A DNA stretch of 64,000 bases from an uncultured Spirochaetota bacterium (GTDB taxonomy: Bacteria > Spirochaetota > Brevinematia > Brevinematales > JAOACQ01), in NCBI GenBank assembly GCA_963835575.1, contig CAWIGG010000002.1:672001-736000 (forward strand), in the 5' to 3' direction. Below, piece by piece: positions 20,021 through 41,550 of the stretch. Numbering within the stretch: the stretch's first letter is position 1; each line of letters begins with the position of its first letter. The notes under the pieces were generated by a model that searched no databases, was not told the origin of the DNA, and saw nothing but the letters and a program-made list of their open reading frames with translations. A program made the position numbers and the translations under genes.

Positions 20021-20613
20021 ATTTTATTCCAAAACCTTTAATTTAATTGTCTTGATTTTTGATCGTATAGTTGAAAGCTTAATTATTAGGACTTTTTTTC
20101 CGATAAAATAGCAATGAAAAATGAAATAATATTTTTCTTAAACCCCTTTACATTTAAAATAAATAGATATATAGTATTTATGGGTAAAAGGGGTTTTATT
20201 CGGCTTTTCAATAAATAAATCCTTTCCGGAGTCAATAACAAAATAATTGACACATCATTAGTTAATTAGAATTTTCTTTCTAAAAAGAATCAGTAATATC
20301 AAGATTTTTGTTGAAATCATATGTATGAAAATTTTACATTTTTTTTGTTTGAGGTGTATAATTTATAGAATGCGAGGAATGCCTCAATACAAAAACAAAT
20401 CAAAAAAGATGTGGATAGTGAGGGATGTTTGAAAAAAAATTAATTAAATATTTATTATTTAATGATTATATAATTTATTTATATATATAGGGAATCTCTA
20501 TCCTCTGGGGGGAGGGTTTGGAGCGTTTCTTTATGAAAATATTTTAGAAAAAGCCTTTAAGAAAATGTTTCTTGAATAATTAATAAGATGTGAATTTTGG
20601 GTGGGAGGAGTTT

Positions 20614-23600
20614 ATGGTGTTTCTGAGAGGGCTTATCTTATTTATTATTTCATGTCTTTTTATTTTTATAAAAGGCTGGTCTTATTATTATTCCCAGAAT
20701 TTTACAGCTACGCCTGCGGGAGCGGGATGGACAACCAATCTCAGATACGGCATTGATACCGGTATAACCAATGAAGCAACATCGGAAACGATTACTTACG
20801 GCGCTGCTGGAGCATCATTCGCCGGATTAATAACCACTGCTATGACAACTATAGATTTGTTAAAAGGCTGTATGCTCAGATATGATACGAGTTATAATGC
20901 CAGCCCAAATCAGCCTTTCGGATATGAAGTGACCAGGAGTTCGGTCCGTTTAGACAGTCATGATGATGCGACAAACCCGGAATCCGGAAGAATGTGGGCG
21001 GCTTTCAGTTTGTGGCTGGTGCAGTATAAAGCCGGAGTGGATAACGGTAACTGGACTGGAATTAAATATGATAATTTTCTTAATTTTATGGAATTTTACC
21101 GGCCGAAACTGGGCAGTGAAGCGGATACAAGGCCGCAAAGTTACTGGGGAAAAAATGATGATATTCTCAGCGGTTATGATCTGTCAGCAATTTCCAATGC
21201 GTCTGAAACCGGGGTCGTTAATTTAACGAACTATCTGCAGTGGTGTTATGATGATTACTGGGGCCGGAATACATATCATACCGGAGGGCATGATAATGCT
21301 TATTCCAATAATGTTAATGTCATCAAGATCCGTGTATCGACTGACGGGGCATATGCCTATCTCTACATCAATCCGAATCCCAATGGCTTAGGCAGTCTTA
21401 ATAACAGCGATGGTACGACAGGATCTTATCCGAACGAGTTTCTTCTTGTCGCAAAAGAAAGCATCAGCTATTCTAATAATTTAATTGCCATGTTCGGTGT
21501 TGAAGCCAATAGAAGCGATCAGCAATTTAACAACGCAGCTGTATCAAATTTTACAATCCGTTCTGTATGCTCTTCCGTAACCTCGGAGATCGCTCCATAT
21601 CAGGTCAAAGCTAATTCAACTACGAGGCTTTATACAGTTATAACACCTGTCTTTTCAAGCGCGAATGAAGCAGGAGTTGGGGAGTTTTATGTTGATATGC
21701 CGGCAGGCTATGCATGGACAAATGAATTTACAAACAGCATCAGCATACAGTGGATTGATACAAACGGTACGGCGGTAAAAACTTTTGGTAAATCATATGG
21801 CGGCGATGCGAATCCGGCAGCCGGTAATGTAAGAATTATTGTCAAAGATCTTTCATCCGGTGATAAAAGACGGCTCAAAGTACGTTTTAATTCATCCGAG
21901 GTGTTTCATCCGGATAACGGCTGCGGAACGGCAGCCACCAACGCGATCCTTTTAATTGTTTCAAATTTTACTTCCGCTGCGATTGCTGATTCGAGCGGCA
22001 AAAGTTTTACAATTTATGTGAATAATGAAAAATATAATGATACCGCATGGACTAAGGTTGCGACGACAGGTAAAATGCAATCCTATGCAGGCGACGCTTA
22101 TAATATGGTATTGTTAGGGCAGGCCGATAATAATACACTGGCATTCCGGACATATAATGATCCTTACGGCGTGGCCGGTCTTTCCGCGGGAATTACGCCG
22201 ACTTCTCCCTATCCCTTCATGTATGAAGGGGATATAAATCAAACACTTTCCTATACTATTTCGGCTAAGGATGCGACGAATAATAATGCCGATATCGGCC
22301 GTGTTGTAATAATAGTTCCTGATGGTTTTACAATAAATTCGAATACCATGGCAAGTCTGCGTATTGACCCGAGTAATATTTCTTTAAGCAACAATTCGGG
22401 GAAGCAATATATTGTTGTGGATTATTCCAAAGCGGGTACGGCTCTTGTGGCTGGGAGCGGGATTGATACCATCAGTTTTCAAAACAATACAACAACCAAT
22501 TTTTTAACAAATGAAGTGATGGTTTTCTGGAAATCTTTATCTTATTCAGCTTTGGCGGGGACTTCCTTTGTCACGAATTCAACCAATTCGGAAATTATTT
22601 ATCAACAGCTTTTAGTCAGAAAAAAGCCGCCGAACGGAGATGGTTATATTGCGGTAAGCCCCAATGTCATTCCAGCTTTAACAAAAAACACTGCCGTCAG
22701 TAATAATTACAGCTATGTTATTCAAAATTTAGGCGATAATGGGAATAATATCAGAAAAGCCCTGATAAATCTTGGAAATTATTTTACAAATGCGGTAAAT
22801 GTTACAAATTCAATTCCAGCGGTGAGTTCCATTTATAGTTCAAATTCATCGGTCTGGATAGAAGTGAATTATGCCGCTTCCGGAAAAGTATTGTCCAATA
22901 ATAATATCGATACTATCAGTTTTACAGCTTATGATAATGTGCAGCCTTTAACAAATGTTATTTTAGTTGGATCGAATACGTCTTATGCGGATAACGGGAA
23001 TGGGGACGGATGGGTTCCGCTTAACCGGGATTCACTGGGGTGGGAAGTTTCATTCTATACGCCTCCTGCAGAGCTCAGAGCGCGGATAATATTCCCTGAA
23101 GATGAATACGGCGGTCCCAATCCATTTAACAGGCATGAGGAATATACTGATATTGATTTCGGCACAAATATTCAAATTGAAGTAAAAAACTGGGGAGAAG
23201 CCGGGAATGACATCTCGCTTGTAAAGATCATCTGTCCTTTTGAGATCACAAATATTTTATCGCTTAATTCTTTAAACGGCGCTTTTTTATCTACAAATAA
23301 AGAAAACGGCTCGAATGTTATTATAGCTTCCTATGCCGGGATGGGTAATTTGAAAGCATCTCTTACCGATCCTTCATTCGGCAGTAATGATATCATTAAT
23401 TTGAATGTTCTGGATTCTATTACTCAGGCAATGGATGTGAGCTTTACGGTTCAAGGTAAAAATACAACAAATTATGCCGACAGTTCCCCTCTTGAGGGCG
23501 GAAATCTCATAATGAATTATATATATCCGCCTGTTATGGCAGACAGCTTTGTATCCGTGTCGAATGGTTTTATTGATGCGGCGACAAATACGGCGACAAT

Positions 23601-26600
23601 AACATATACTATAAATAACCTCGGGAGATATGGAAACAGGATCATTCAGGCATTTGTTTATTTTCCAACCAATTATATCACAAATATTCAATTTAACGGA
23701 AGCCTTCTCGGTGCGGCCGCGAATTATAGCAGCGGCGTTTTAACATTGTCATACGGGAACAAATTTCCAGGCGGAACAAATGATGTAATAAATGTAACTA
23801 TGTGGGACAATGTGGAAAGCGCGAAAACCACATTCGATCTCACCTGCGGTATTACCAATGACCGAGAGCTGTCAAATTCAATTGGAGTTACTTCTAATCA
23901 AACACAAACAGTATATATTACCCCGCCGCCCACTCTCTATTCCTACCGTCTCTTGCCAACAATATTTTATAATGCTAAAATCGGCGCTACTAATACAAAC
24001 CAGCTTGTGATAAGTGTTTCTAACAGAGGATGGGGAAGTAATAAGCTGAACAGGATTAAAATCGATATTCCTCAGGATTTTATAAATGAAGTCACTCTGG
24101 TCAGCAACGCTTTGACTGGACTTATAAATACTTCAAGCGGTCCTTTGCAGATATCCAATAATAATAATATATGGTTGATGTATGACCAGGCTGGTACAAA
24201 TTTGACGGCAGGCGGCAGAGATGACATCTATCTATGGATTGAAGTGAGTTCGACAAATGTCACCAATACAACCTGGACGGTATGGGCGGCTAATAATTCG
24301 ACAAATGATTACAGTCAGAGCCTGACAAATAACGGGTTTATGCTGGACGGCGGAATGAATATGCTGTCGCTTGTCGATAGGCCGCATGGTTATACGGCTA
24401 CCACGGAAGTTCTGACTCCTTCAGTCGTCAATGCTTATACAAACCGGATTAAAAACGGGGATACCATTAATTCAGGGCGTTCGATTTCAAGGGTCAGAAT
24501 AGGAATGCTTTCCATGTTTACTCTGGTCAGTAATATAATGAGCAGTTCTCTCGGAGCATGTACAACGAATGGTAATTATATTATAGTGAATTACGGCGTT
24601 CCGTTAAGTCCCGGATCGCTGGACACAATAGTATATTATGCTTATGATAACTGGACATTCGGTGAAACGAGAGAATCCTTTACATGGGATGTTGATTACG
24701 GCGACGGTTCCGGATGGCATCCGGCGGGCACAACACCCGGACAGACTAATGAAGTTTATTTCAGGAATCCAACAGTAAGCGCCCGTACCTATGTTACACC
24801 CAATCAGGTTTCGCAGGATTTCCCTACGAATAATTATTCATTTTATCTTGAAAATATAGGGGAAAGCGGAAATAATATTGCTGTTGCCAGAATTACAGCC
24901 CCGAATTTTATAACCAATATTTCAAACGCTGTTTCATTGATAAAATCCGGTATAATCACGATAACAAGCAATATTGTCACAATTTATTATACGAATAGTC
25001 TGCTTGCCAGCACAGAAACAGATCTTATCAGTTTAATCGGTTATGATAGTATCAGTAACTCGACAACAAATGATAACTGGCAGTTATATGTTTATAATAC
25101 GACGAATTTTACCGGCGGCGAGAATGCTATAATAGTTGTTGGAAAAAGTCTTGGATTGAATATTGTGGCACCGGATGTCAGGCCGAGGATTTATATCGAA
25201 GCGACAAATTCAGTCTCGGATCAGGAAAAGAATGTTATCTATTCGAGTTTGACTACAAATTATCTGAAATTTTATATTTACAACTTAAGTCCAACAGAAG
25301 ATAGTCTGGATGACAGCATTACAAAGCTGAAAATTACCCTGCCGATGGGCGGAATACTGGATACTAACACGCTGTCCGCGACAAATTTAATCATATCAAA
25401 CGCCGTTACAATTCTATCCAATGGGGCTCTCTGGGTTGATTATTCCTCCTCCAGAATACTTTCGGGACAGCATGATGAAATCCTTATCCGGGTAAATGAT
25501 ACAATTACTCATTCAGAAACGAATTTAACATGGAGCGCTGATGCCGCATTTGTTTCAACTTATAATAATTATAAAAACGCGGCTTTATACTCTTCTGATA
25601 AATCGCTAAGTATTACATACAGAATGCCGCAGCCTGCCGGTTATATTACAATGAATCCGTCTCAGCTTTATCAGAACCAGACTAATTTTGTGATGCATTT
25701 GTCTCTCAGTAATTCAGGCATGGGTACTGCCGATCTGGATTATCTCTGGGTTACTTTGCCTAATGAATTAAAGACCGGTTTTGACTTAACAAAAATATCC
25801 AATACAAAGGCCATAGCGACAAATTATAACAGCGGCACCGGGCAAATCGAGTTTTACTATTCATCGCCGTTATTGACAGGCCAGCAGGATGATATTTATT
25901 TGTCTCTGAATAATGCTTCTGCCGTTTCGACTAATTTATATATTGATTCAAAAGTCAGGGATTTTATATACACCAATACAACATCAATTGAAACAAATAA
26001 AAATCTATTCATTTCGACTTATCCGGCAGTGTCTGTTACACCGAATGTTATTGATACAACGACGTCAACCAATCTTTTGACAATAACTCTGGATAACATT
26101 ATAAACGGCACACTGAATGTGAAAAAAGCCATACTGGTACTTCCTGAAGAATTTACGAATATTATATCCATACAGAGCAGGATTATAACTAATGCGGCCC
26201 ATATTACGGGGACAGCGACAAACCTGGTATTAAATTATGATGATGAGGGAAAAGAAATCGAAGTCGGGGATTATGACGTCATCACTGTTAATTTAGCAGA
26301 TAATTTTAATGTCGGCACTATAACAAACGGGCTGCTGGCTTATGTCAGCGACGGGCAGGGATTCGGCTTTGTGCAGACAAAGGTCAGGGTCTCCGGTTCG
26401 ACTAATATCATATTTCAGATGCCTCAGCCTGTATCACAAAGCAGGCTGTACCCGGACACAATCAGTTTGACGACAACGACAAACAGCATGTCGATATGGA
26501 TAACAAATGAAGGAAGCGGAAGCAGCGCCATACGTTTTGCGAGAATATGGCTGCCGTCCGGGCTCAGCAATGTCTCGCCGGCTATCACAAGCAGCAATAT

Positions 26601-28314
26601 CGGCTTGACTGCATATATACCGGAAAGCAATCTGATTTTTGTTCAATATACTAATGAAAACCTTTTATCGAGCGGTAAAGAGGATTGCCTGAGCTTTATT
26701 TTTACGAATAGAATAAATTCTGTCAGCAATCTTTCGGTCCTGGTTAAGGTCGCGAATTTAACCAATAATCCGCAATACGTTAATTCCCCGGGCGTAATTG
26801 GGCCAAATTTGATGATACGTGTAGATTATCCGCCTGTTGCGGCTGAAGGATATTTTAATAATAGTAATACTTTATATATTATACAAACGAATTCAAGCCT
26901 GACTTACAGGATAATGAACAGGACCTTTGATACGGTGTTAACGCAGGCGGTTATTACTCTGGACACAAATTTATTTACAGGTATAAGCGTTGCAAGTTTA
27001 AAAGCCCTGAGCAGTTCTTTTAACAGCGCCAGCAATCAGATTACATTCAGCTACGATCCATTACAGACAAATTTCGGTTTCAGCGGTTATGATGATATTA
27101 CATTTAATTTTAAGTATTCACTCAGTAATTCATATTTGATACCGGTTCATACAAGGGTTTGGCTGACAGGAAATACAATAACTAATATAGATACGCTTGC
27201 ATCGGCGGGTAATGTTTCATATATTCTGATAACAAATTCTTCATGGGGCGCAGTGAGGGGAACTATATTCCCTTCAATAAAACCAGTTAATGTAAAGCTT
27301 TATTACCCCGGCACAAGTACCGCGGCGACGAATGTAGACGGCGCTGTTATAACGGCCGTATCATCAGGCACGGGAATATATGATATTGATAAAGTTCCCG
27401 CCGGAACTTACAATTTTGAATATACAGCAGCAACTTATAGAACTTATAGAATAAACAATTTTAAGGTAAATGCCAACACACTGAATATAATATCAATAAT
27501 CACAATGGATAATGCGCCTCTGATCGCAGGGCTGACAAATTCCAACCAGGAAGTCGATTGCTATGATGATAATAGAAGCAAGGTGATCTTTTTAACAAAC
27601 GGCATTGAGAAGCAGTTTGCAGTCAATATAAAAAGAATGCCCTTTACTGAGATACAGAAAGAGAAGGTCAATTCTGAAAATCTTATTAAAGAACCGTCAA
27701 CAAAAGATTATTTGAGCAATTATATGTTCGACTTGAGTGATATTAATGATAATCAATTGAAGGGGGCCATTATCACCAATGACGCTATCATGTACCTGGC
27801 TTATGATGTCACTAATATTACATCAAGAGGGTGGAATGAAAATGATCTAGCCATTTATTACTGGGATGAAACAAAACTCAATTCGCGATGGATCAGGTTG
27901 GGCGGAGAAGTTGATAAAGTCAATCAATTTGTAATAGCCAAAGTTAATTACATACATCAATTCTATGCTGTTATGGCTAAAAGCGGAGATGGAAAAAGCA
28001 ACGGCGCCATTAGAAACGTGAGCGTCAGGCCCAAGATATTCACGCCGACCAAGGACCAGAACGGCTATTTTGGAAGCGTCCGTATCAGCTTTGAACTGGA
28101 TCCTGCTCAAAAATATGATAGTTATGAGGTTAAAATATATGATCTACGGGGTGATCTGGTCAAGAGTTTTAAGAGAAGCGGCTCCTACACTCAGGGCGAG
28201 GTCGCATGGGATTCCCGTGACGATGGCGGCTATCCGGTTAAAGGCGGAGTGTATATTTACCGTGTGAAAGCCGGGACGAGTGTTTTTGCCGGCACTATAA
28301 TCATTGTGCGGTGA
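20614..28314 (+). CDS. Giant exported repeat protein A (~2,566 aa): N-terminal head, 13 beta-sandwich-like repeats, carboxypeptidase-regulatory-like domain, FlgD-Ig/T9SS-CTD-like tail
   Basis: Start re-picked at the ATG after GGAGGAG; signal peptide; repeat motif x-I-x-N-x-G...I-xx-A-x-I-xx-P...G-xx-D-x-I; C-terminus PKIFTP...VKIYDLRGDLVKSF...WD...GVYIY...GTIIIVR. Confidence 0.8.
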   Translation: MVFLRGLILFIISCLFIFIKGWSYYYSQNFTATPAGAGWTTNLRYGIDTGITNEATSETITYGAAGASFAGLITTAMTTIDLLKGCMLRYDTSYNASPNQPFGYEVTRSSVRLDSHDDATNPESGRMWAAFSLWLVQYKAGVDNGNWTGIKYDNFLNFMEFYRPKLGSEADTRPQSYWGKNDDILSGYDLSAISNASETGVVNLTNYLQWCYDDYWGRNTYHTGGHDNAYSNNVNVIKIRVSTDGAYAYLYINPNPNGLGSLNNSDGTTGSYPNEFLLVAKESISYSNNLIAMFGVEANRSDQQFNNAAVSNFTIRSVCSSVTSEIAPYQVKANSTTRLYTVITPVFSSANEAGVGEFYVDMPAGYAWTNEFTNSISIQWIDTNGTAVKTFGKSYGGDANPAAGNVRIIVKDLSSGDKRRLKVRFNSSEVFHPDNGCGTAATNAILLIVSNFTSAAIADSSGKSFTIYVNNEKYNDTAWTKVATTGKMQSYAGDAYNMVLLGQADNNTLAFRTYNDPYGVAGLSAGITPTSPYPFMYEGDINQTLSYTISAKDATNNNADIGRVVIIVPDGFTINSNTMASLRIDPSNISLSNNSGKQYIVVDYSKAGTALVAGSGIDTISFQNNTTTNFLTNEVMVFWKSLSYSALAGTSFVTNSTNSEIIYQQLLVRKKPPNGDGYIAVSPNVIPALTKNTAVSNNYSYVIQNLGDNGNNIRKALINLGNYFTNAVNVTNSIPAVSSIYSSNSSVWIEVNYAASGKVLSNNNIDTISFTAYDNVQPLTNVILVGSNTSYADNGNGDGWVPLNRDSLGWEVSFYTPPAELRARIIFPEDEYGGPNPFNRHEEYTDIDFGTNIQIEVKNWGEAGNDISLVKIICPFEITNILSLNSLNGAFLSTNKENGSNVIIASYAGMGNLKASLTDPSFGSNDIINLNVLDSITQAMDVSFTVQGKNTTNYADSSPLEGGNLIMNYIYPPVMADSFVSVSNGFIDAATNTATITYTINNLGRYGNRIIQAFVYFPTNYITNIQFNGSLLGAAANYSSGVLTLSYGNKFPGGTNDVINVTMWDNVESAKTTFDLTCGITNDRELSNSIGVTSNQTQTVYITPPPTLYSYRLLPTIFYNAKIGATNTNQLVISVSNRGWGSNKLNRIKIDIPQDFINEVTLVSNALTGLINTSSGPLQISNNNNIWLMYDQAGTNLTAGGRDDIYLWIEVSSTNVTNTTWTVWAANNSTNDYSQSLTNNGFMLDGGMNMLSLVDRPHGYTATTEVLTPSVVNAYTNRIKNGDTINSGRSISRVRIGMLSMFTLVSNIMSSSLGACTTNGNYIIVNYGVPLSPGSLDTIVYYAYDNWTFGETRESFTWDVDYGDGSGWHPAGTTPGQTNEVYFRNPTVSARTYVTPNQVSQDFPTNNYSFYLENIGESGNNIAVARITAPNFITNISNAVSLIKSGIITITSNIVTIYYTNSLLASTETDLISLIGYDSISNSTTNDNWQLYVYNTTNFTGGENAIIVVGKSLGLNIVAPDVRPRIYIEATNSVSDQEKNVIYSSLTTNYLKFYIYNLSPTEDSLDDSITKLKITLPMGGILDTNTLSATNLIISNAVTILSNGALWVDYSSSRILSGQHDEILIRVNDTITHSETNLTWSADAAFVSTYNNYKNAALYSSDKSLSITYRMPQPAGYITMNPSQLYQNQTNFVMHLSLSNSGMGTADLDYLWVTLPNELKTGFDLTKISNTKAIATNYNSGTGQIEFYYSSPLLTGQQDDIYLSLNNASAVSTNLYIDSKVRDFIYTNTTSIETNKNLFISTYPAVSVTPNVIDTTTSTNLLTITLDNIINGTLNVKKAILVLPEEFTNIISIQSRIITNAAHITGTATNLVLNYDDEGKEIEVGDYDVITVNLADNFNVGTITNGLLAYVSDGQGFGFVQTKVRVSGSTNIIFQMPQPVSQSRLYPDTISLTTTTNSMSIWITNEGSGSSAIRFARIWLPSGLSNVSPAITSSNIGLTAYIPESNLIFVQYTNENLLSSGKEDCLSFIFTNRINSVSNLSVLVKVANLTNNPQYVNSPGVIGPNLMIRVDYPPVAAEGYFNNSNTLYIIQTNSSLTYRIMNRTFDTVLTQAVITLDTNLFTGISVASLKALSSSFNSASNQITFSYDPLQTNFGFSGYDDITFNFKYSLSNSYLIPVHTRVWLTGNTITNIDTLASAGNVSYILITNSSWGAVRGTIFPSIKPVNVKLYYPGTSTAATNVDGAVITAVSSGTGIYDIDKVPAGTYNFEYTAATYRTYRINNFKVNANTLNIISIITMDNAPLIAGLTNSNQEVDCYDDNRSKVIFLTNGIEKQFAVNIKRMPFTEIQKEKVNSENLIKEPSTKDYLSNYMFDLSDINDNQLKGAIITNDAIMYLAYDVTNITSRGWNENDLAIYYWDETKLNSRWIRLGGEVDKVNQFVIAKVNYIHQFYAVMAKSGDGKSNGAIRNVSVRPKIFTPTKDQNGYFGSVRISFELDPAQKYDSYEVKIYDLRGDLVKSFKRSGSYTQGEVAWDSRDDGGYPVKGGVYIYRVKAGTSVFAGTIIIVR

Positions 28315-28324
28315 GGGGGCGGAT

Positions 28325-31300
28325 ATGAATAAAATATTATATTTATCTATAAACTATCTTTTACAGGCAGGGAAAAAAATGCATCTATTTTACCGCTTTA
28401 TACTGGTATTTCTTGCTTTGATTATCTGCAGTTCAGGCTTTTCCCTCTCTTATTATTATTATGAAGATTTTGAAGCAATGCCTACGGCCGCTAATGGGGC
28501 AAGTTATTCTAATAATGGTATTTATTCGACCAACGGATGGAGCTGGAACTATAGATTAGGAAGAGATGTTATAGCTTATGATGTCTGGCATAGCAGTACA
28601 GCAGTAACACCAACTCCTTGGTATGGAGGAGTGGAAATTACAAACAATGGAGGAAATAAACGTCTCTTTATATACGGAAGGCCGAATAATGAAGACCTCT
28701 TCTGGAACAACTGGTGCATCGGGGACGGGATCAAATTCGATCCGAAAAGTAACCAGCAATTAGGTAATAGTTCGATAATAGCCACGCCTGAAAATCCTTT
28801 CGGCTATACGATAGTCAGATATACAACCAGCATTGATGCTTCCTGCGAGTCTCAGGCGCAGGCGGATTATCATAAAGGATTCGTAGGTGCATGGCTCGGC
28901 GAAGATATGCCGGGAAAAACCAATCAGAATGATTCTTTGAATAATTTCATTATATTTGAAGATAAAAGCGGGGACAAAGTACAGAACAGTTACGGATATT
29001 ATTACAATGCGGATTACAGTGTAGATATTACAACATTAACTTCCGATTTTGATGGAAAATCGGTTGGTAATACAGCTCTATTGGGTACTGATTTTAGAAA
29101 AATAATGGATGATAATAACGCAGGATTTAATAATTCAATAAAATACAGCACGGCATATTCAAATCCAGTAACCCGCCCGTTGGGTATCAAAATGACTACA
29201 GACGGTTCAAAAGTGAGAATTTATGTCAATTTCAATCCGACCAATGAAACGGCTTACGGATTGTCCAACAGCTGGGTCCTGATAGTTGAAAAAGACGCGG
29301 CTATTGCACAGGACCTGATTGCGTACTTCGGGGATGAAACAACATATTATCTGCCTGAAGGCATAGAAGCCCAGTACGATAATTTCCTTATAAGGACTGT
29401 TACCAGTAATATTCAAGCTTCCATTTCTCCCCAGAAAGTTGTGACCAATGGTTTTGTCCGCTTTAATATGATCATAACTAATTTTATGGGTACAACCAAT
29501 GACAGCGGTATAGGGGAATTTGTGGTTAAAAAACCTGCCAGTTATACATCAAACTGGATTTTATCCAATGTGAGCATCTCCAATGAATATGGAATGCTGA
29601 CGGTCACAAATACAAATATGAATCCGCCTTCAGGCTACGCATCAGTATCAACAAACTCAAGCGGTGATCTCTATATACGGTTTAACATGTCATCAGGTTC
29701 ATCGCATCAAATACTCACAAACAGCGTAGGGGTAGTTAATCTTCAATTCAGCATCTGGACTTCTCCAAATGCAAACAGCTCTGGCGAGAATTTTGAGGTG
29801 TATGCCGACTGCGTCAAGCATGCCGATACCGGCCCGGATTGGGTTTTTAATCAATCTACCGGTATTAAATACGCTACGACAGGAAAAAAGAAGGCATATC
29901 CTGTTTCATCGGATTCCCTATCGGTGCAAGTCTATACATCACCGGCTGCTTATGCGATGCTGTCTTCGCCGAACAGCCTGGTTGTCGGTCAGGACCAATC
30001 CGCCCTCAGTTTTATTTTATCCACTGAAGGGATATCAGGGGCGCCTAACATATCCTATGCAAGGATTTATATACCGGCCGGATTTACTGTCAGTAATAAC
30101 AATCCGTCGACCAACATCAGTTCAATGGTACTGGGAAGCCAGAGTTTTCAAAATTGCTATCTGACTAATATCAATGGAAGCAATTTTATTTTTATCAATT
30201 ATATGGGCGTGGGAGGCTTCCCGGGAATAAACGGCTGGGACACGATATCTTTCAATAATTACGGAACGCCTGCAATGCCCGGCGGAATCAATTATACGAA
30301 TTTCCTCTGGCAGGTTTCTGTCGACAGTTCGGGAATTATCGGAGGTACAGTCTGGCAGAACACAATAACAAACAGTACTTACAGCCATCAGACATTAAGA
30401 ATGACTATGTCCAATGCTCAGGTTTCAGCTTATATTACGCCTCAGAAAGCCGCTATAAATACCACGGTTCAAAGCAATCAGCTTCGCTACAGCTATTTTA
30501 TTGAAAACACAGGTCAGATAAATAATAATGTTTATGGAATAAGGATTGATATACCCGGGGATTTTTTAACCAACAGTGTAACGAATATCGTGAGTACAAA
30601 CGGCGGTATAACGAAATTATCAAATAGCTCGATCTGGGTAAATTACGCTTCTCCGCTGACGAGCGGTCAGAAGGATACCATCCTGTTTTACGCGACCCAC
30701 ACAAATACGGATGTCAATGCATCCAGTAAATCAGTCCCATTTTATTGTTATGCCGATAACAATAACAGCATAGGATATACAATTCAAAGGGAAGCGGCAG
30801 GACAGACCTGGAGTGTAACAATTGTACCTCCTTTACCGGCGGCGGAAAACCAGCTTTTTATTCCTGTCACGAATATTATCGGGACCAATACCAATGTTAC
30901 AATGAATCCTGTTATTTATACTTCTGATGTGACTAATACATTTATACATAAGATATATAATACCGGTGCTATCGGTGTGAATATTAAACTGGCTGTAATA
31001 TCAGTGGCAACAAACTATATTTCATCAATTTTCAATGTTTCAAGCTCACTGGCTGGCAGCCATTATCAAATCAGCAATATTAACGGAAGCAATTATATTT
31101 ATTTAAAGTATTATGAAAATAACACGAATTTGTTATCAATGGATCAGGACCCGGCGGCGCTTGACACAGTCCAATTTACCGCTGTGGACAGTATAGCGGT
31201 CAATACATTCAGCATTATGCCCACAAATATTGGCATGCCGGTCACCGTTTATAAAACGACTAATGTTTCCATGGATCCGAATGATTACAGCACCTCTGCG

Positions 31301-34300
31301 ATCGGCATCAAATATTCTGGAACCAATAAAATTTATGTCGAATATCCTCATGTCGCATTGGCGTATTATATAGTTCCGAACAAACTGGATACGACAACAA
31401 TCACAAATTCAATTACCTATTTTATCACAAATCTGGGAATGCCGGGTAACAGTGTACATAATATAAAAATCAGTATTCCCACTAATATTTCCACCAATAT
31501 TCAGAATGTTAACGGGGGAGTATTTGACCCGGTTACAAATAACATAGTAATCAATTTTCCGACGCCTTTAGATGGAGGGCAGTCAAGAACAGTTACTTTC
31601 AATATGATTGATATTGTTGACGGAAAAGATATAAAAGATATTTATTTATATCCCTGGGTTTCGAATGACAGGGAGAGCGTACAGGTCTCAAATGTGGTTT
31701 TAGGCATGAGCGGAAAGCTGGATTTTTTGCTTCCTAAACCGAAAGGCGGCGGCGGCGTCAGCCCGAATGTGTTCTTTGTCGATCTGAATGAACCATTAAA
31801 CAGCGTTTTGACGCAGCAGTTCACAATAACGGTGACAAATGCGGGTGTGGGAACAGACCGCTTTAATAGCTTAAAAGTTGATATACCGGATGCATTGAAT
31901 GGATTAATAAATACGGTTTATTCCACAAAGTTAGGAGTTTCCAACCAGGGTAACCCGTTATTGATAAAATTAAATGCGACCAATTTTGAAATAATATATT
32001 CTAACGCTTCGTCATTTATCCCGGCAAAAAATGCTGATACTATAATTGTTACCGCGCTTGTTTCCAATCTTAATTCTCTTCCGACAAATGGTGTATGGGA
32101 TTTTTATGCGGACAACGGCTCTGTTTTAAATAATTTTCCCAACCCGGATATTACTTATTTTGAACTGACTGATGTCACTATCGGAAGTTCCGGATTATAC
32201 GGCACTGAAAGGCCTACAGTCAGCCAGAATGGGGACACATTGACAACAGTCATCACAAACACATTTGATTATGTCATTCAAAACGGGAGTACTTTTAATG
32301 GAGAACCGGTCAGTAAAGCCAGAATAGAAATACCCTGGCCGTATACTGCGGTGATCCAGACTATGAATATCGGAGGACAGAGCGCCAACCTCTCGACAAA
32401 TGGCGGTTATATATGGCTGAATTACGTTGGGCCGAATTATCTCTCAAGCGGTAATAATACAGCAATTGAAATTAAAACGGTCAAACCTCTTATTTCAGAA
32501 GCCACGAATGTTTTATGGAATTGCGATGTCTATTATTTGGATAATTCCAGCAATACGGCTGTCAGTAATGTGAGGGGCGATCCAAGACAGATGATTGTAT
32601 TGCCTAACGCATATTTTTACAGCTATGTCTCGCCTAATGATGTGGGAAAAGATGAAATAGGAGTTTTATATACCTTTACTATTACAAATTACGGGGAGAT
32701 CGGAAATAACCTGTATAAGATAAAAATAGTGCCGCCGACAACAAATTCAAATAATTTTTTAGTAATGACCAATATTGATAGTATTACATCAGTATTAGCG
32801 GGGACAAATACCATATATTCCAATGACGGCTGCGTTTATATCGATTATGGAGCGAATAATACGAATATTGTTTCTAAAGCCATCGATACTGTCAGTTTAA
32901 GAGCTTATGACAATCAGGATTCAATCGGTTTTAAGGGCCAATGGGCAGTCTATACGGCTAATGGAAAAACAATGAATCCAACAATTGCGACGGCTGATCC
33001 GGAAACCGGCATTGGAAAAAGCCTCTCTTATAATGTGATTATGCCTGATTATGATTCGACATATTATGTCATTCCCAATAGTGTTTCGACAGTTAGTACA
33101 TCAAATACTATCAAAGTCGTCATTGAAAATGCGGGTAAAGGAACAAACAATATTAACAATGTGAGAATCTATTTACAATATCCTTTCCTGACGAATAATA
33201 TCGCCGTATCAAGTTCAAACGGCGCCGCTTACAGCATGTCTTCCGAGGGAGGGACAAATTATGTTGATCTGCAGTATCCTCCGAATACTTTTGTTACAAA
33301 TAAAGCGGATATTATTACACTCAATATCCAGGATGAAATGAATTACGGCGACACCAATATACTTGTTGATGTAAAAACCCGTTATAATACTTCAGTATTA
33401 ACATATATTCCTTCAAGGATACAATCAGGATTTACGAACCTGATCAGTTTTTTAATGCCTCCGCCTGTTGTCAGCGCAAACTTTGTGTCCGATAGTGTTT
33501 ATACAGTTCAAAGAGATTCAAAGCTGAGGTTCAGGATTATCAATAACGGCCTGGGAAGTAATGAATTAAGGAATATCAGTTTAACTGTTAATAGTTCATT
33601 TACAAACGGTTTAACTATTGCCAGGATTTCTGATAATCTGGCCACAAATATCATTTATGACAGCGCATCCGGTACATATGAAATGAACTACAGCAATTTT
33701 GTTATATTAATGACAAATGATATTGTGCTTGAGGTGACAAATACTAATACGCAGAAAATAAAGAATTTTAATTTTGATATGAGTTTCAATAATGGAATAC
33801 GCAATACAAATTTGTCGCTTTATTTGAATGTTGATACTCCCCCTACCGCATCTCTCTTAACAAAAGAAGTTTATGCGCCAAACTACAGCAATGATGTAAA
33901 GATGAATTTCTTTAATTACAGCAGCGGAAGTTCTTCTATATATTATCTCAGAATAACTCCGCCCAATGTCTTTACAAATCTGCTGAACCCGACAAGCGCA
34001 AAAGGAACAGTTGTGAGTAATCTGGGAACAAATATTGTGATTTACTATGCCTCCGGTCTTGCTAAAACGGATAACGATACAATTGAAATGTGGGCGGTAG
34101 ACAGCAACGATATGGTAGAAACCAGCAATGTTCCCTGGAAGCTGGAAGCTGATAATACCGGAGGCTATTCGGCTGTGGCTGAAGATCAGAGTAATTCTCT
34201 GGAAATGTCTCTTATTATACCTCAACCCAGTGTATCGAATATTGTTTATACTAAATGGTATGTGATCAATACCGGAAGTACAGAGTTAACAAATAGTTTT

Positions 34301-36106
34301 ATTCTGATGTTCAGCAATATCGGCGAGGGGGCTAATTCAATATTTTCTAATATTGTGGTGCTTCCCAGCCAGCTATCCACTGTTTTAGCATCAACGTTGA
34401 CTAATACAAAAACAGGTTCCAGGATTAATTTCAGCGGGAATAGTATAATTGTTGAGTATACAAATAGTTCGGGTTTATTCCCGGGAGAATGTGATACAAT
34501 TACGTTTATGTTTACTAATACAGTTACTTCTTCTAAAGATCTCTATCTATCCACGCAGAGTTACAACGGCAGTTCCAAAGGGGACACAGAAGAGACATTT
34601 ATTGTCAGTTTTATTTCGCCGCAGGAACCGACGGAAGGATATGTTGACGGACAAATGTCGATTTACAGCATAGATAATAACGCCGTTATTAAATATCATA
34701 TCAACAACGGCATGTATGACCACGGCATCAGGGCAGTGAGACTTTCATTTGATAACACACAACTTTTTGTGACAAATATTTACTCAACGGTTTTAAATCA
34801 AAACTTAAGCTATAACCTGACACCGTCAAATATTATTATCCATTATAATACCCTGCTTCCTCCCAAACCTACAACCGGTTCATCCGGCAGTAATGAAATC
34901 CTTCTGATTGCGGTTAATTATACAAATAATCACAATTGGACAAATTATATGAATGCCGACGTTTTATATGACGGGGCTTATGATTACGCGCCGGCGCAGG
35001 TAAAGCCCGGTGAAAATAATTTCCTTCCTGTAATGATAGCGGACTTCGGCAGGGTGACCGGTATTGTTCTTCCCGGGAATTCCAATCCGACCATAAAACT
35101 GTATAATCACAACAGCGCCGTAACCGCGACGAATAAATTAGGGAATCAGATTACAGCAGGCGGCAATTCTACTACCGGCCAGTATACGCTTGATAATATA
35201 CCGGCAGGCACCTATGACATAGGTTTTATAGGGAATCTGTATAAAGAAGATAAAATATCCGGTGTGCAGGTCCTAAATAATGTTATTACCAATATAAGCT
35301 TATTCAAGCTCAGAAGAGACATATTTAACCGTGATTCTACAACTGTTCAGACAACAGTTTCATTGGATGATACAAATTGTATTGTTACAATTCCAGCGGG
35401 GACATTGGGCGATAATTTTTCAATTGATATCTGGATTACAAATGTCAGTGTTGTGAGTGGAATGAGGGAAAAGCTCACAAGCGGCGGCTCAATCAAGTCT
35501 CCTTCCTATCCTGATAATGTTAAAGTATACAATCTTGATATCAGGGGAGTTGACGAGGACAAGAGATATGAACAGGAATTGAAAAACGATGTCATTATTT
35601 CCCTGCATTATAATGACATCGATATAAGCTCACAAGGCTGGAAAGAAGGTACATTGGCTATTTATTACTGGAGGAGTATGACCAAAGAATGGATCAGGAT
35701 CGGAGGCGCAGTGGATACCACCAGAAACATGGTAACGATCAAAGCAAGCTATCTGCATCAGTATTACGCGATAGTTGATGAGAATCCGGGAAGCACGAAA
35801 GTTAAAGGTATTGTCAGCGTAAAGACCGATCCGAAAATATTTACTCCGGGCGTGAATAACAGAACATTTAAAAATATTAAAATATCCATCGGCTTTGAAG
35901 ACGCTCATGATACTTACCAGGTTAAAATTTATGATCTGAGGGGAAATCTTATCAGATCGTTTGTCCGGAGCGGTGAATACAAGCAGGGAGAAATTTACTG
36001 GGACGGCACAGATGAAGATGGATATAATCTGAAGACTGGGGTATATATTTATAAAATTATCGCGGGAACAATTGTTTACAGCGGTACTATAGTGATTGTC
36101 AGGTAA
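28325..36106 (+). CDS. Giant exported repeat protein B, a colinear paralog of A (alternative start 28379)
   Basis: Signal peptide then SYYYY; 13 repeats; C-terminus PKIFTP...VKIYDLRGNLIRSF...WDG...GVYIY...GTIVIVR. Confidence 0.8.
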   Translation: MNKILYLSINYLLQAGKKMHLFYRFILVFLALIICSSGFSLSYYYYEDFEAMPTAANGASYSNNGIYSTNGWSWNYRLGRDVIAYDVWHSSTAVTPTPWYGGVEITNNGGNKRLFIYGRPNNEDLFWNNWCIGDGIKFDPKSNQQLGNSSIIATPENPFGYTIVRYTTSIDASCESQAQADYHKGFVGAWLGEDMPGKTNQNDSLNNFIIFEDKSGDKVQNSYGYYYNADYSVDITTLTSDFDGKSVGNTALLGTDFRKIMDDNNAGFNNSIKYSTAYSNPVTRPLGIKMTTDGSKVRIYVNFNPTNETAYGLSNSWVLIVEKDAAIAQDLIAYFGDETTYYLPEGIEAQYDNFLIRTVTSNIQASISPQKVVTNGFVRFNMIITNFMGTTNDSGIGEFVVKKPASYTSNWILSNVSISNEYGMLTVTNTNMNPPSGYASVSTNSSGDLYIRFNMSSGSSHQILTNSVGVVNLQFSIWTSPNANSSGENFEVYADCVKHADTGPDWVFNQSTGIKYATTGKKKAYPVSSDSLSVQVYTSPAAYAMLSSPNSLVVGQDQSALSFILSTEGISGAPNISYARIYIPAGFTVSNNNPSTNISSMVLGSQSFQNCYLTNINGSNFIFINYMGVGGFPGINGWDTISFNNYGTPAMPGGINYTNFLWQVSVDSSGIIGGTVWQNTITNSTYSHQTLRMTMSNAQVSAYITPQKAAINTTVQSNQLRYSYFIENTGQINNNVYGIRIDIPGDFLTNSVTNIVSTNGGITKLSNSSIWVNYASPLTSGQKDTILFYATHTNTDVNASSKSVPFYCYADNNNSIGYTIQREAAGQTWSVTIVPPLPAAENQLFIPVTNIIGTNTNVTMNPVIYTSDVTNTFIHKIYNTGAIGVNIKLAVISVATNYISSIFNVSSSLAGSHYQISNINGSNYIYLKYYENNTNLLSMDQDPAALDTVQFTAVDSIAVNTFSIMPTNIGMPVTVYKTTNVSMDPNDYSTSAIGIKYSGTNKIYVEYPHVALAYYIVPNKLDTTTITNSITYFITNLGMPGNSVHNIKISIPTNISTNIQNVNGGVFDPVTNNIVINFPTPLDGGQSRTVTFNMIDIVDGKDIKDIYLYPWVSNDRESVQVSNVVLGMSGKLDFLLPKPKGGGGVSPNVFFVDLNEPLNSVLTQQFTITVTNAGVGTDRFNSLKVDIPDALNGLINTVYSTKLGVSNQGNPLLIKLNATNFEIIYSNASSFIPAKNADTIIVTALVSNLNSLPTNGVWDFYADNGSVLNNFPNPDITYFELTDVTIGSSGLYGTERPTVSQNGDTLTTVITNTFDYVIQNGSTFNGEPVSKARIEIPWPYTAVIQTMNIGGQSANLSTNGGYIWLNYVGPNYLSSGNNTAIEIKTVKPLISEATNVLWNCDVYYLDNSSNTAVSNVRGDPRQMIVLPNAYFYSYVSPNDVGKDEIGVLYTFTITNYGEIGNNLYKIKIVPPTTNSNNFLVMTNIDSITSVLAGTNTIYSNDGCVYIDYGANNTNIVSKAIDTVSLRAYDNQDSIGFKGQWAVYTANGKTMNPTIATADPETGIGKSLSYNVIMPDYDSTYYVIPNSVSTVSTSNTIKVVIENAGKGTNNINNVRIYLQYPFLTNNIAVSSSNGAAYSMSSEGGTNYVDLQYPPNTFVTNKADIITLNIQDEMNYGDTNILVDVKTRYNTSVLTYIPSRIQSGFTNLISFLMPPPVVSANFVSDSVYTVQRDSKLRFRIINNGLGSNELRNISLTVNSSFTNGLTIARISDNLATNIIYDSASGTYEMNYSNFVILMTNDIVLEVTNTNTQKIKNFNFDMSFNNGIRNTNLSLYLNVDTPPTASLLTKEVYAPNYSNDVKMNFFNYSSGSSSIYYLRITPPNVFTNLLNPTSAKGTVVSNLGTNIVIYYASGLAKTDNDTIEMWAVDSNDMVETSNVPWKLEADNTGGYSAVAEDQSNSLEMSLIIPQPSVSNIVYTKWYVINTGSTELTNSFILMFSNIGEGANSIFSNIVVLPSQLSTVLASTLTNTKTGSRINFSGNSIIVEYTNSSGLFPGECDTITFMFTNTVTSSKDLYLSTQSYNGSSKGDTEETFIVSFISPQEPTEGYVDGQMSIYSIDNNAVIKYHINNGMYDHGIRAVRLSFDNTQLFVTNIYSTVLNQNLSYNLTPSNIIIHYNTLLPPKPTTGSSGSNEILLIAVNYTNNHNWTNYMNADVLYDGAYDYAPAQVKPGENNFLPVMIADFGRVTGIVLPGNSNPTIKLYNHNSAVTATNKLGNQITAGGNSTTGQYTLDNIPAGTYDIGFIGNLYKEDKISGVQVLNNVITNISLFKLRRDIFNRDSTTVQTTVSLDDTNCIVTIPAGTLGDNFSIDIWITNVSVVSGMREKLTSGGSIKSPSYPDNVKVYNLDIRGVDEDKRYEQELKNDVIISLHYNDIDISSQGWKEGTLAIYYWRSMTKEWIRIGGAVDTTRNMVTIKASYLHQYYAIVDENPGSTKVKGIVSVKTDPKIFTPGVNNRTFKNIKISIGFEDAHDTYQVKIYDLRGNLIRSFVRSGEYKQGEIYWDGTDEDGYNLKTGVYIYKIIAGTIVYSGTIVIVR

Positions 36107-36120
36107 AGGAGGAACGGGGT

Positions 36121-37383
36121 ATGTTAAAAAGATATTTAATTATTATTTTATTTATTCTATCTATATCATCAGCTTACTGTGCTTATGAAGACGGGGAAAG
36201 AAATGCGCGGAGCCGGGCAATGGGCGACGCTATTTTTGCCGATTTTGACGGTGTGAACACCATGAATTATAATCCGGCTACCATAGCGCTTGTTCGAAGC
36301 ATACAAACTTACGGGGCCTGGGATACGCCCTATACAGGCTTGAATGACGATACAGGTATCAATACAATTCACTTTGATCTTGTCGTTCCATTCTGGAATA
36401 GTTTTACAATCGGCCCCGATCCCTTCCTGACAAAAAGGGCGGCTTTAGGAATCAGCGTAAAGAGACTTTCAGTAAGCGGCATAGATTCTGACGGCGCTAA
36501 TGTGGAGTTTTATCATGAGGCGGAATACAGTTTAATTTATGCTAAAGATTTGAACGATGCCCTATCAAAAGGAGCGAAAATATCTGTCGGAGTAAAATTT
36601 AATTTGTTTGATATCGGCATTGGAAATACAGTGGATGTTCAAAATAACGAGAATATTGTTCAGCTCTCCAGGCTTTCATTCGGTATGGACGCGGGTTTGA
36701 CTTATGATTTCAGCGAGACTATTCATATCGGCCTGGCTTATAATAATTTAGTGCAGCCTAATATTTCAATAATGCCCGATGGGACAGATGTCCTTCCCAG
36801 CGAATTAAGATTAGGGGCCAACTGGGATATCGGAGATTTTTTATTTTTCAAAAAGGCCAAATTGGGTTTCGGTATAATCAGTTACGGAAGAGATCCGAAT
36901 GATAACCGTCAGGCAGATATGTCCTGGAACCTTGGCTATGAATTCAGGCAGCTGACAGCCAGCGAGATAATTAAAGGGAGTACATTTAAAGGTGAAATGC
37001 TGGCTTTCCGCTTTGGTATGATTTATCTGCAGAAAAAGACAGGAGATGACATTGATTTGTATATAGTTAAACTTACAGGAGATCTTGTTATGACAGGCGG
37101 TCTTGGTTTTACTTATGAATTTAATGAGGCGCATCAGGTAAGTGTTGATTATTGTATTGATTATGGTTTGAACAATGGAGCATTGAGACAAACCGTTGGT
37201 TTGAGTTACCGTTATTTATTCCCGAACAGCGCTTTTGCTTATAAAGAAGAAGAAAGAAAAGAGTTGGAGTTTGAAGAGTTGATGCAAAAGCGCCAGACTG
37301 CTGTCACCAATCAATCTCAAAATAATCAATATAATCTGCCTGTAACTCAGGAGACAAATAAAACAAAAACAAAAGTCAAATAG
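36121..37383 (+). CDS. PorV/PorP-SprF-like (FadL-related) outer-membrane beta-barrel
   Basis: Signal peptide; ARSRAMGDA...NYNPA plug motif; GMDAGL, NLVQP, LPSELRLG amphipathic strands; AGGAGG RBS 14 bp after the previous stop. Confidence 0.7.
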   Translation: MLKRYLIIILFILSISSAYCAYEDGERNARSRAMGDAIFADFDGVNTMNYNPATIALVRSIQTYGAWDTPYTGLNDDTGINTIHFDLVVPFWNSFTIGPDPFLTKRAALGISVKRLSVSGIDSDGANVEFYHEAEYSLIYAKDLNDALSKGAKISVGVKFNLFDIGIGNTVDVQNNENIVQLSRLSFGMDAGLTYDFSETIHIGLAYNNLVQPNISIMPDGTDVLPSELRLGANWDIGDFLFFKKAKLGFGIISYGRDPNDNRQADMSWNLGYEFRQLTASEIIKGSTFKGEMLAFRFGMIYLQKKTGDDIDLYIVKLTGDLVMTGGLGFTYEFNEAHQVSVDYCIDYGLNNGALRQTVGLSYRYLFPNSAFAYKEEERKELEFEELMQKRQTAVTNQSQNNQYNLPVTQETNKTKTKVK

Positions 37384-37402: not shown

Positions 37403-37438
37403 AGAGGCTGTCTTTAGATAATTGGACAGCCTCTTTTT
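37403..37438 (+). terminator. Intrinsic terminator ending the three-gene operon
   Basis: AGAGGCTGTC...GACAGCCTCT followed by TTTT; A-tract on the left (possibly bidirectional). Confidence 0.7.
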
Positions 37439-37501
37439 ATTAGAAAAATTATTCATTAAGGTGTATAATAAAACCGGCATCAAGCATGGAGGGCTATCTT
37501 C

Positions 37502-40154: not shown

Positions 40155-41550
40155 GAGTTATAATAGAAAGTTGTGTATAGGAATAAATATTATAAAAAAG
40201 ATGGCGTACCCTCTATAATTTATTTACGACAATAAACAAAAGGAGGAATACGCCATATGCCGAAGCACAACGAAGATTTTAAGCTCTTAGAGGCTTTTAA
40301 TCAAGATGAAACAGTAGAATTTTTATGTCTTGAAGAATTGGCAAGGATCGGGGCCAGGGAAATAATCAAGAAGGCTCTGGAAGATGAAATTAATGGGTTT
40401 CTTCAGGAGAGAGAGCATTTAACTATCGAAGACGGGAGAAAGGCAATAGTAAGAAATGGGTATCATAAAGCCCGTCAGATTCTCATTGGTGGAGGGGCTA
40501 TTGATGTATGTATTCCGAGAACAAGGAACCGACTCGGAGGCGACAATTTTCAAAGCCTAATAGTACCGCCGTATATGAGAAAAAGCCTGAGAATTGAGGA
40601 AGCCATTCCATTGTTGTATCTCTATGGAGTCTCAGAGATGGATATGGAGAATGCCTTGAGAGGATTGCTTGGTGAAGAAGCGAAAGGATTATCAGCCTCA
40701 AGTATAAGCAGAATGAAACAAGGATGGGGTAAAGAATATGATGAGTGGCGGACATCCGATTTAAGCGATAAAAAGTATTGCTATATATGGGTTGACGGCA
40801 TTTACTTCAATGTACAGGGCAGCGAAGACCGTTTATGCACTCTTGTAATGATCGGAGCCAATGAGAATGGTGAAAAGGAGATTATTCTTGTTGAAGAAGG
40901 TTACAGAGAGAATTCCGAGACTTGGTTAGGGATATTAAGAAACCTAAAAGAAAAAGGTTTGAAAGGTCCTATTCTTTTTATCGGAGACGGAAGCCTTGGA
41001 TTCTGGAAAGCAGCCAAAGAAGTATATCCTGAATCCAGATGGCAGAGATGCTGGGTTCATAAGATAAAGAACATTCTAAACAAGCTGCCCAAAGTATTAC
41101 AGTCAAAGGCAAAAGAGATGCTTCATGAGATATGCAATGCTCCTGATAAGGATAATGCTATCAAAGCTTTTGAATTATTCCAGGCGGTTTTTAATCCTAA
41201 ATATCCAGCAGCTGTCGAATGTTTAGAAAAGGATTGGGAGCTTATGATCGAATTTTATAACTGTCCGGCGGAACATTGGGTACATATCCGTACGACAAAC
41301 GTAATAGAATCTACCTTCTCTACAGTTCGATTAAGAACTAAAAAGATGAGAGGCTGCGGAACCAGGGAAACGATTCTAATAATGGTCTATAAATTACTGG
41401 ATAAGGCATCCAGGCGATGGAGAAAATTAAGAGGTTATGAAAAGATTAGCCTTGTATTGGAAGGCGCTGTTTTTGAGAACGGAGAGCTTGTAAAAAAGGC
41501 AGCATAAAAAAATGAGAGGGTATGTCATACACAACATTTGACAAAAACTC
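40155..41550 (+). mobile_element. IS256-family insertion sequence, copy 1 (1,396 bp)
   Basis: Imperfect IRs GAGTTATAATAGAAAGTTGTGTAT / ATACACAACATTTGACAAAAACTC; flanking direct repeat TTAATAA at 40148-54 and 41551-57. Confidence 0.93.
40257..41507 (+). CDS. IS256-family (Mutator-like) DDE transposase
   Basis: RNGY, YIWVDG, FIGDG, QRCWVH, RTTNVIES motifs. Confidence 0.95.
   Translation: MPKHNEDFKLLEAFNQDETVEFLCLEELARIGAREIIKKALEDEINGFLQEREHLTIEDGRKAIVRNGYHKARQILIGGGAIDVCIPRTRNRLGGDNFQSLIVPPYMRKSLRIEEAIPLLYLYGVSEMDMENALRGLLGEEAKGLSASSISRMKQGWGKEYDEWRTSDLSDKKYCYIWVDGIYFNVQGSEDRLCTLVMIGANENGEKEIILVEEGYRENSETWLGILRNLKEKGLKGPILFIGDGSLGFWKAAKEVYPESRWQRCWVHKIKNILNKLPKVLQSKAKEMLHEICNAPDKDNAIKAFELFQAVFNPKYPAAVECLEKDWELMIEFYNCPAEHWVHIRTTNVIESTFSTVRLRTKKMRGCGTRETILIMVYKLLDKASRRWRKLRGYEKISLVLEGAVFENGELVKKAA

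Follow-up and report, generated by a model that had tools for sequence, protein, structure and literature searches.

Can an operon that resembles a cargo-carrier pair from type IX secretion systems (T9SS) serve protein export in a spirochaete? The question is raised by three genes, termed A, B and C, in a stretch of 64,000 nucleotides (the window; positions 672,001 to 736,000 of contig CAWIGG010000002.1, assembly GCA_963835575.1) from an uncultured Spirochaetota bacterium. An earlier note described two giant secreted proteins with a common C-terminal tail, encoded before a putative outer-membrane barrel, and proposed the tail as sorting signal and the barrel as its receptor or anchor. This observation was partly confirmed. 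With moderate confidence, we regard the operon as the cargo-plus-carrier arm of a reduced, motor-less T9SS-like outer-membrane export system in Brevinematales, which would display giant adhesins on a dedicated barrel. The computed basis of this reading is the domain anatomy of the giants, the similarity of C to the PorV fold, the presence of a collinear SprA homologue in the host genome, the gene order and a nested co-occurrence.

The three open reading frames (ORFs) are located on the + strand between 20.6 and 37.4 kb and abut or are 14 nt apart, in agreement with the tight linkage described before. Protein A (20614..28314) comprises 2,566 aa from the ATG at 20614, which is preceded by GGGAGGAG and has a better ribosome site than the GTG at 20590 chosen by the ORF finder (2,574 aa). 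Protein B (28325..36106, ~2,590 aa) likely starts with ATG 28325 or 28379, directly 3' of the stop codon of A. It is a full-length paralogue of A with the same architecture, consisting of a putative signal peptide, a head, 12 repeats, a carboxypeptidase-regulatory-like domain, a β domain before the tail and a tail that resembles the C-terminal domain (CTD) of T9SS cargo. Protein C (36121..37383, 420 aa) is located 14 nt 3' of B, with AAGGAGGAA. An N-terminal hydrophobic stretch is present in A, B and C; the signal peptides postulated for both giants are borne out by hydropathy only. The predicted terminator was also recovered. An intrinsic-terminator-like hairpin (37403-37434; 11-bp stem, 10-nt loop) with a T run is found 3' of C (37403..37441, + strand), and the 66-nt region has a predicted fold of -21.9 kcal/mol (z -4.9; 0/200 shuffles equally good). 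The consensus terminator scan overlooked the hairpin because its loop is longer than 8 nt.

Protein C contains the AR-x-x-AMG...NPA motif pointed out earlier, and the expectation that the 420-aa protein is a barrel held in the structural model (predicted local distance difference test, pLDDT, 84). The model has 14 strands and an N-terminal plug, and the helix at its C-terminus (residues 376-404) contains no cysteine. Among 48,161 chains compared by VIA-align, PorV (6h3i_F) ranks first (Z 28.9, root-mean-square deviation (rmsd) 2.7 over 287 residues) and FadL next (Z 27.2, rmsd 4.4); the Atlas neighbours of C are PorV clusters at 0.96. Its assignment as a PorV/FadL-fold outer-membrane barrel is supported by this prediction. 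On the sequence level, C remains below the cut-offs of the PorP/SprF family TIGR03519 (33.1 vs 90.55 bits) and of PF03349 (16.8 vs 29.7 bits), and PF11751 is found on 1 of 48 C homologues. One homologue is labelled 'conjugal transfer protein TraF'; this was rejected, as the label reflects a short PF13729 barrel match. In one relative the barrel gene is tandemly duplicated and the second copy has a C-terminal extension that is ~190 aa longer (L024:8711-11695 / L085).

Does C instead act as a FadL-type channel that passes hydrophobic small molecules and stands beside the giants for historical or regulatory reasons? FadL and TodX are the next structural matches of C as well as its sole barrel matches by sequence in the PDB, and the features they share with PorV (14 strands, N-terminal hatch, NPA motif) are all present in C. 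Comparable 14-stranded plugged barrels of the same superfamily and phylum are described for T. pallidum (PMC13749626) and Brachyspira (BP951000_RS08455; preprint 10.1101/2025.01.03.631275). The accessible text of these sources reads them as small-molecule transporters and does not tie them to CTD cargo or SprA. Among named matches, however, close relatives of C are found solely in Brevinematia. The fit to PorV is tighter than that to the FadL-type matches (rmsd 2.7 vs 4.2-4.7), and C and the giants share a 14-genome distribution even where their genes are unlinked. The nesting of this distribution within the set of SprA-positive genomes would be left unexplained. A mere channel is thus very improbable.

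The tails of A (27997..28311, + strand, ~105 aa) and B (35792..36103, + strand) were described as near-identical at the end of otherwise diverged proteins. They are indeed the most conserved part, but only 55 of 105 alignment columns (52%) are identical. The divergence of the remainder is likewise a matter of degree: blocks of 100 residues are 19-35% identical up to residue 2400, followed by 41% and 57%, yet the proteins align from end to end (27% identity, E 1e-157) and their bodies are still homologous.

Profile scores were taken on the isolated last 137 aa of each giant. FlgD_ig (PF13860) is above its cut-off in A and B (33.5 and 32.4 vs 27 bits). The type A profile TIGR04183 yields 23.4 and 22.7 bits (cut-off 23) on the isolated tails and is not reported on the full proteins. 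The proposed type B (CHU_C) class of the tail could not be upheld, with 14.8/16.3 vs 35 bits for TIGR04131 and 23.7/20.7 vs 27 bits for CHU_C. An alignment of tails matches the CTD of PorU best in the PDB (E 1.3e-4), with FlgD about equal (E 1.8e-4). The IYDLRG loop resembles the motif FDMNGR, which is needed for export in the CTD of RgpB according to PMC11285876. By these scores the tail appears nearer to type A and PorU CTDs than to type B.

Known type B cargo-carrier pairs are SprB-SprF of F. johnsoniae and PG1035-PorP of P. gingivalis (PMC9143113, PMC12618676, PMC12635249). As in these pairs, a giant repeat protein ends in an Ig-like sorting domain and its gene directly precedes that of a carrier barrel with 14 strands; orphan pairs are found as well, and a sortase is not needed. 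In contrast to the type B pairs, the tail fails TIGR04131 and CHU_C, the barrel fails TIGR03519 and two cargoes are present per barrel. Furthermore, C has no Cys-x-Cys tail, no GldK was found and the host belongs to Spirochaetota. The twin cysteines of SprF link it to GldK (PMC12635249); no cysteine follows the barrel in any of 44 aligned barrels. As judged from sequence, the likeness to type B is one of gene arrangement and not of sequence class.

The anatomy of the giants is that of a head on a long stalk. The head of B (28454..29407, + strand) was modelled with AlphaFold2 on residues 51-670 (27-row alignment, pLDDT 82). The first domain of this model (~318 residues) is predicted to form a concanavalin A-like β jelly-roll. 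Its best matches in the VIA structural comparison are a domain of BT_1020 and GH43 C-terminal domains (Z 14.0-14.6, rmsd 2.8-3.0), followed by PL7 and GH16. The head of A (approximately 20683..21639, + strand) is homologous to it by alignment, and its fold is assumed from the B model. The catalytic GH16 motif ExDx(x)E is present in 0 of 27 heads, which are therefore read as probably lectin-like; the predicted fold suggests that they probably bind glycans. A PDB sequence search with the head domain gave no match, the Atlas leads (DUF11, legume lectin) are at 0.80-0.83 and below the reliable range of the Atlas, and Foldseek matches are weak (template modelling score <=0.23).

The stalks consist of 12 tandem repeats of ~140 aa each (A: 22183..27234, ORF residues 532-2215, β-rich; B: 29945..35038, ORF residues 548-2245; both + strand), which are probably Ig-like. 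They were detected by an iterated hidden Markov model, to which BLAST self-comparison was blind; it counts 12-13 repeats in 25/25 giant sequences tested and 0 on reversed controls. The segment before the tail shows a weak carboxypeptidase-regulatory-like match and a conserved β domain. In this segment (window positions ~27850-27990 and ~35650-35780) the pattern YYW...W-x-R/K-[IL]-GG-x-VD...YLH-x-Y is conserved. It is reminiscent of ZU5-like domains, without the HFS autoproteolysis serine. No OmpA domain or membrane anchor was found in A or B.

A and B are separate, persistent orthogroups, with heads ~35% identical within the own group and 18-21% across. The head family comprises 129 representatives, 54 of which have >=1,500 aa; 45 of these 54 end in the tail, with 0-32 repeats. 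Many proteins of 450-620 aa (P0150-P0205) correspond to the head region alone, without tail or Pfam family, and two of their clusters are named from Spirochaetota. Some of the head-only proteins may be fragments. The host genome encodes two further giant secreted-looking ORFs of 3,175 and 3,602 aa without the tail (G000:C4:1015891-1025418 and C4:1029039-1039847), the larger of which ends in an M23-like sequence by eye. A 2,824-aa protein (G000:C2:750822-759296, L030) joins a cellulose-synthase-like GT2 domain with numerous Ig-like/OmpL47-type domains and one FlgD_ig inside the chain; it was rejected as a third cargo, since its FlgD_ig is internal and a terminal tail is missing.

A pore for such cargo was sought in the host genome, as the earlier note had proposed, and a SprA homologue was found that is co-distributed with the module. 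It is a stand-alone protein of 1,891 aa (G000:C2:522918-528593; L028:1419-7094) with Phe as last residue. TIGR04189 matches it with E 4.8e-25, and a 26-row profile of the family matches F. johnsoniae SprA (6h3i_A) with E 2e-23 in three significant collinear stretches. A single-sequence PDB search found nothing; the alignment search succeeded. Relatives carry PF14349. According to these sequence matches the protein is a homologue of the SprA/Sov translocon. A gene similar to the LysM/M23 protein of the window, or to its paralogues, is often found near it.

Gene order was surveyed in 14 GTDB loci and distribution in 35 genomes of the order; matches to barrel and giants with E <1e-30 were counted as strong, and weaker ones, mostly to OmpA-fusion proteins, were set aside. 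In 11 of the 14 loci the gene directly upstream of C is a B orthologue, and the order A-B-C is visible in 8. Of the linked loci, 10 have a tail match and one is broken by an assembly gap; the remaining three loci are unlinked. Linkage of tail genes to such barrels in relatives is therefore real. SprA is present in 18 of the 35 genomes. Barrel and giants occur together in the same 14 genomes, all of them SprA-positive, and the 17 genomes without SprA, including four congeners that are 94-96% complete, have neither; a control gene was found in 33/35. PorV_fam is above its cut-off in 9 genomes, all SprA-positive. Genomes G031 and G032 each consist of one contig; in both, C is the sole PorV_fam match and has been retained although its gene is separated from the two A-B pairs. 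T. aquatica has an annotated barrel orthologue, and the complete genome that contains locus L016 has a SprA homologue. On the level of the phylum, 114 of 301 Spirochaetota genomes match the SprA profile. The tail (Brevinematia-built model, E 1e-10 or better) was found in 31 genomes, all within the 114. Three large Spirochaetota families match the SprA profile in 0/61, 0/41 and 1/34 genomes.

This nesting bears on whether the giants are exported at all. A and B might stay in the periplasm, where FlgD-like tails would bind C from inside and the rods would act as envelope spacers. Lsa66-like proteins would provide the precedent: their FlgD_ig/CHU_C repeats are related to the tail (NF053608, E 1e-29 summed), and two proteins of the host genome (G000:C4:766958-771025, L031; C4:133869-136550, L032) combine a probable N-terminal PorV-like barrel with FlgD/CHU_C repeats and OmpA. 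Such proteins also occur in genomes without SprA, the tail matches FlgD_ig best among the Pfam families, and no motor was found. However, in Lsa66-type proteins the domains are internal repeats of a chain that ends in OmpA, whereas the giants have a single terminal copy and neither OmpA nor a membrane anchor. The terminal tail is found solely together with SprA (31/31), whereas the OmpA fusions are independent of it, and a stalk that varies in length and bears a lectin-like head fits a surface protein. A periplasmic tether is rather unlikely. The pair of carrier and CTD could have evolved from the Lsa66-like fusions, which have barrel and tail-like domains in one chain.

With SprA, a PorV-like barrel and a CTD-like tail, the export reading can be compared to the T9SS core of SprA/Sov, PorV and type A CTD (PDB 6H3I, 8GL6; PMC10994853). 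The likeness lies in the collinearity of the SprA homologue, PorV as top fold match and, less clearly, a tail that scores about at the TIGR04183 cut-off and is similar to the PorU CTD. Unlike in the known core, the SprA homologue is ~500 aa shorter, and PorK/L/M/N and PorU were not found. These parts had been named for a search, which was made without a positive control; the negatives therefore mean 'not found'. The GldL/GldM motor was not detected in the host genome (4.39 Mb, 94% complete), and no control genome held a true positive. GldN is found neither in the host nor in 301 phylum genomes. GldM has 8 weak matches in the 301 genomes, two of them marginally above cut-off in a family without SprA, and GldL_N is found in 0/35 order genomes. 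GldK matches in the host reach at most 110 vs 350 bits, and the two best were rejected as PorK/GldK, being generic FGE-sulfatase proteins in unrelated contexts. The PorU sortase (peptidase C25) has one weak match below cut-off (E 0.004). Neither motor nor ring nor sortase was found, so the evidence falls short of a canonical T9SS.

Could PorK/L/M/N and PorG all be present and be too divergent for current profiles? The SprA homologue itself scores below cut-off, and other components might escape detection likewise; a positive control was lacking for GldL/M/N, and several FGE-sulfatase proteins match GldK weakly. On the other hand, the best of these matches are the generic proteins mentioned above, the counts for GldN, GldM and GldL_N are zero or close to it, and the C-tail lacks cysteine in 44/44 barrels. 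Moreover, no conserved motor-like gene is present among the SprA neighbours listed for 20 loci. We see little likelihood of a complete T9SS.

That no sortase was found is relevant to the fate of the cargo. C might act like PorV, as a recycling shuttle on the same export route, with A and B released or built into a sheath or S-layer-like coat. PorV as top structural match of C, a tail nearer type A than type B and one barrel for four tails in G031 and G032 are consistent with this. The lack of a detectable PorU-like sortase speaks against it, as does the tail aligning best to the CTD of PorU, which is uncut. In addition, cargo and barrel genes sharing an operon are typical of carriers that remain attached to their cargo (PMC9143113, PMC12635249). 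Release of the giants by a shuttle is unlikely.

The host itself is not a member of Bacteroidota, as suspected, and its sequence relationships identify it as a Brevinematales spirochaete. The spirochaete is of the free-living type. Named MutS relatives are from Spirochaetes GWF1_51_8 (61%), Brevinematia and Brevinematales; those of C are from the Brevinematia/Brevinematales group and Thermospira aquatica. Four FlaA matches are present in the genome. The 14 GTDB barrel loci are labelled Brevinematales, Brevinematia or Spirochaetes in 13 cases and Nitrospiraceae in one, a short contig. Horizontal import of the operon from Bacteroidota is disfavoured because its GC content agrees with the rest of the window and it is located 3' of ispG in 6 of 11 relatives examined. 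Thus, host, barrel, linkage and SprA support the interpretation of the earlier note, and the type B class of the tail does not. None of the three findings it had named as speaking against it was made (a Bacteroidota host with canonical T9SS, a third protein that is not a barrel, lack of linkage in relatives).

For the favoured reading, reduced export with display on C, the following steps are proposed by analogy with Bacteroidota, as is the receptor role of the barrel for the tail. A and B would cross the inner membrane by Sec. The C-terminal Ig-like tail would then enter the SprA-like pore from the periplasm and bind C docked at the side opening of the pore. The complex of C and cargo would leave the pore, and the tail would remain uncut, because no PorU sortase was found, and bound to C. 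In the end state C would hold a 12-repeat rod, roughly 50 nm long by our estimate, with the lectin-like head pointing outward as an adhesin. The energy step is a guess: a general ExbBD-TonB-type or unrelated motor may act on the conserved periplasmic helix of C, or release may be unpowered. TonB_C is present in 34/35 and ExbD in 35/35 order genomes; neither tracks SprA.

Several points weigh against this reading. The energy step is its main gap, because release from the translocon is motor-dependent in F. johnsoniae (PMC10994853) and the searches in this host gave no motor. The SprA match is limited to parts of the N-terminal 1,220 residues and, at 87 bits, falls short of the 200 bits set for an equivalog, and the Pfam SprA family is found in 0 of 26 aligned members. 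For C, the Z gap between PorV and FadL is merely 1.7, Foldseek places two FadL mutants just above PorV, and the scores for PorV_fam (34 bits) and PorP/SprF (33 bits) are about equal and below cut-off. Type A CTDs end in a near-invariant Lys (PMC10994853), which is mostly Thr in these tails. FlgD/CHU_C-like domains also occur in the probably periplasmic fusions of barrel, repeats and OmpA, including those of SprA-less genomes. Of the 114 SprA-positive phylum genomes, 83 have no tail at E 1e-10 with the Brevinematia-built model, and the module is missing from 4 of the 18 SprA-positive order genomes. Related genomes are not independent, so that few events, mainly those in genus g1 and family f2, underlie the co-absence seen in the order. 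Finally, the support is computational, and binding, export and expression of the giants are predictions.

Further features were noted in the window and the genome. A candidate promoter of the operon (20333..20362, + strand) is the best sigma-70-like match (11/12) in the spacer between ispG and A. It is a consensus match only, in AT-rich DNA with 111 such matches vs 68 expected. Two 416-aa Mutator-family transposases with identical Pfam scores are present in inverted orientation at 40257-41507 (+) and 44104-45354 (-). They flank an HTH gene and a TPR/transglutaminase-like gene, possibly as a composite transposon. A second barrel of the host genome passes PorV_fam (NF033709, 99 vs 90 bits). It is encoded in a second candidate cargo cluster (G000:C2:625607-633683, L029), which comprises secreted proteins of DUF11-like and of F5/8 + Fn3 type, then a 416-aa protein with a weak CTD-like end and this barrel, to which TPR and CBM48-like domains are fused. 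At G000:C4:26812-28922 (L087) an exbB/tolQ-like gene without adjacent exbD directly precedes a PpiD/SurA-like gene; this ExbB-linked gene is near-universal (33/35 order genomes).

No published description of SprA or CTD export in Spirochaetota was found in the top-ranked literature, which included few subscription papers and no supplements. A phylum-wide spirochaete preprint does not mention T9SS or SprA in its main text, and a term search of PMC13078400, PMC9581022 and PMC10515386 gave nothing further. The accessible text of a paper from 2024 (PMC11285876) states that T9SS genes are absent outside the Fibrobacterota, Chlorobiota and Bacteroidota (FCB) phyla.

A wider scenario is offered tentatively and is, in our view, somewhat doubtful. 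SprA pore, PorV-like carriers and CTD-like tails may represent an ancient core for export, older than the motor of Bacteroidota. More than a third of the spirochaete species sampled would have kept it, and several lineages would have lost it. It would export 280-kDa adhesins with another energy source or none, and the T9SS of Bacteroidota would be an elaboration that gained its motor later. In pathogenic spirochaetes, the PorV/FadL-like barrels could then be remnants of this core.

Of 301 Spirochaetota genomes, 114 have a SprA homologue, the tail-bearing cargo is nested within these, and no motor is recognisable; this challenges both an FCB-only T9SS and motor-dependent release. A secretion route described solely for Bacteroidota and their allies seems to run stripped-down in spirochaetes. 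It provides a natural system in which to study the minimal T9SS and its first source of energy. For the spirochaetes themselves, it offers a route for large surface proteins and suggests that their 'FadL-like' barrels should be re-read as protein carriers.

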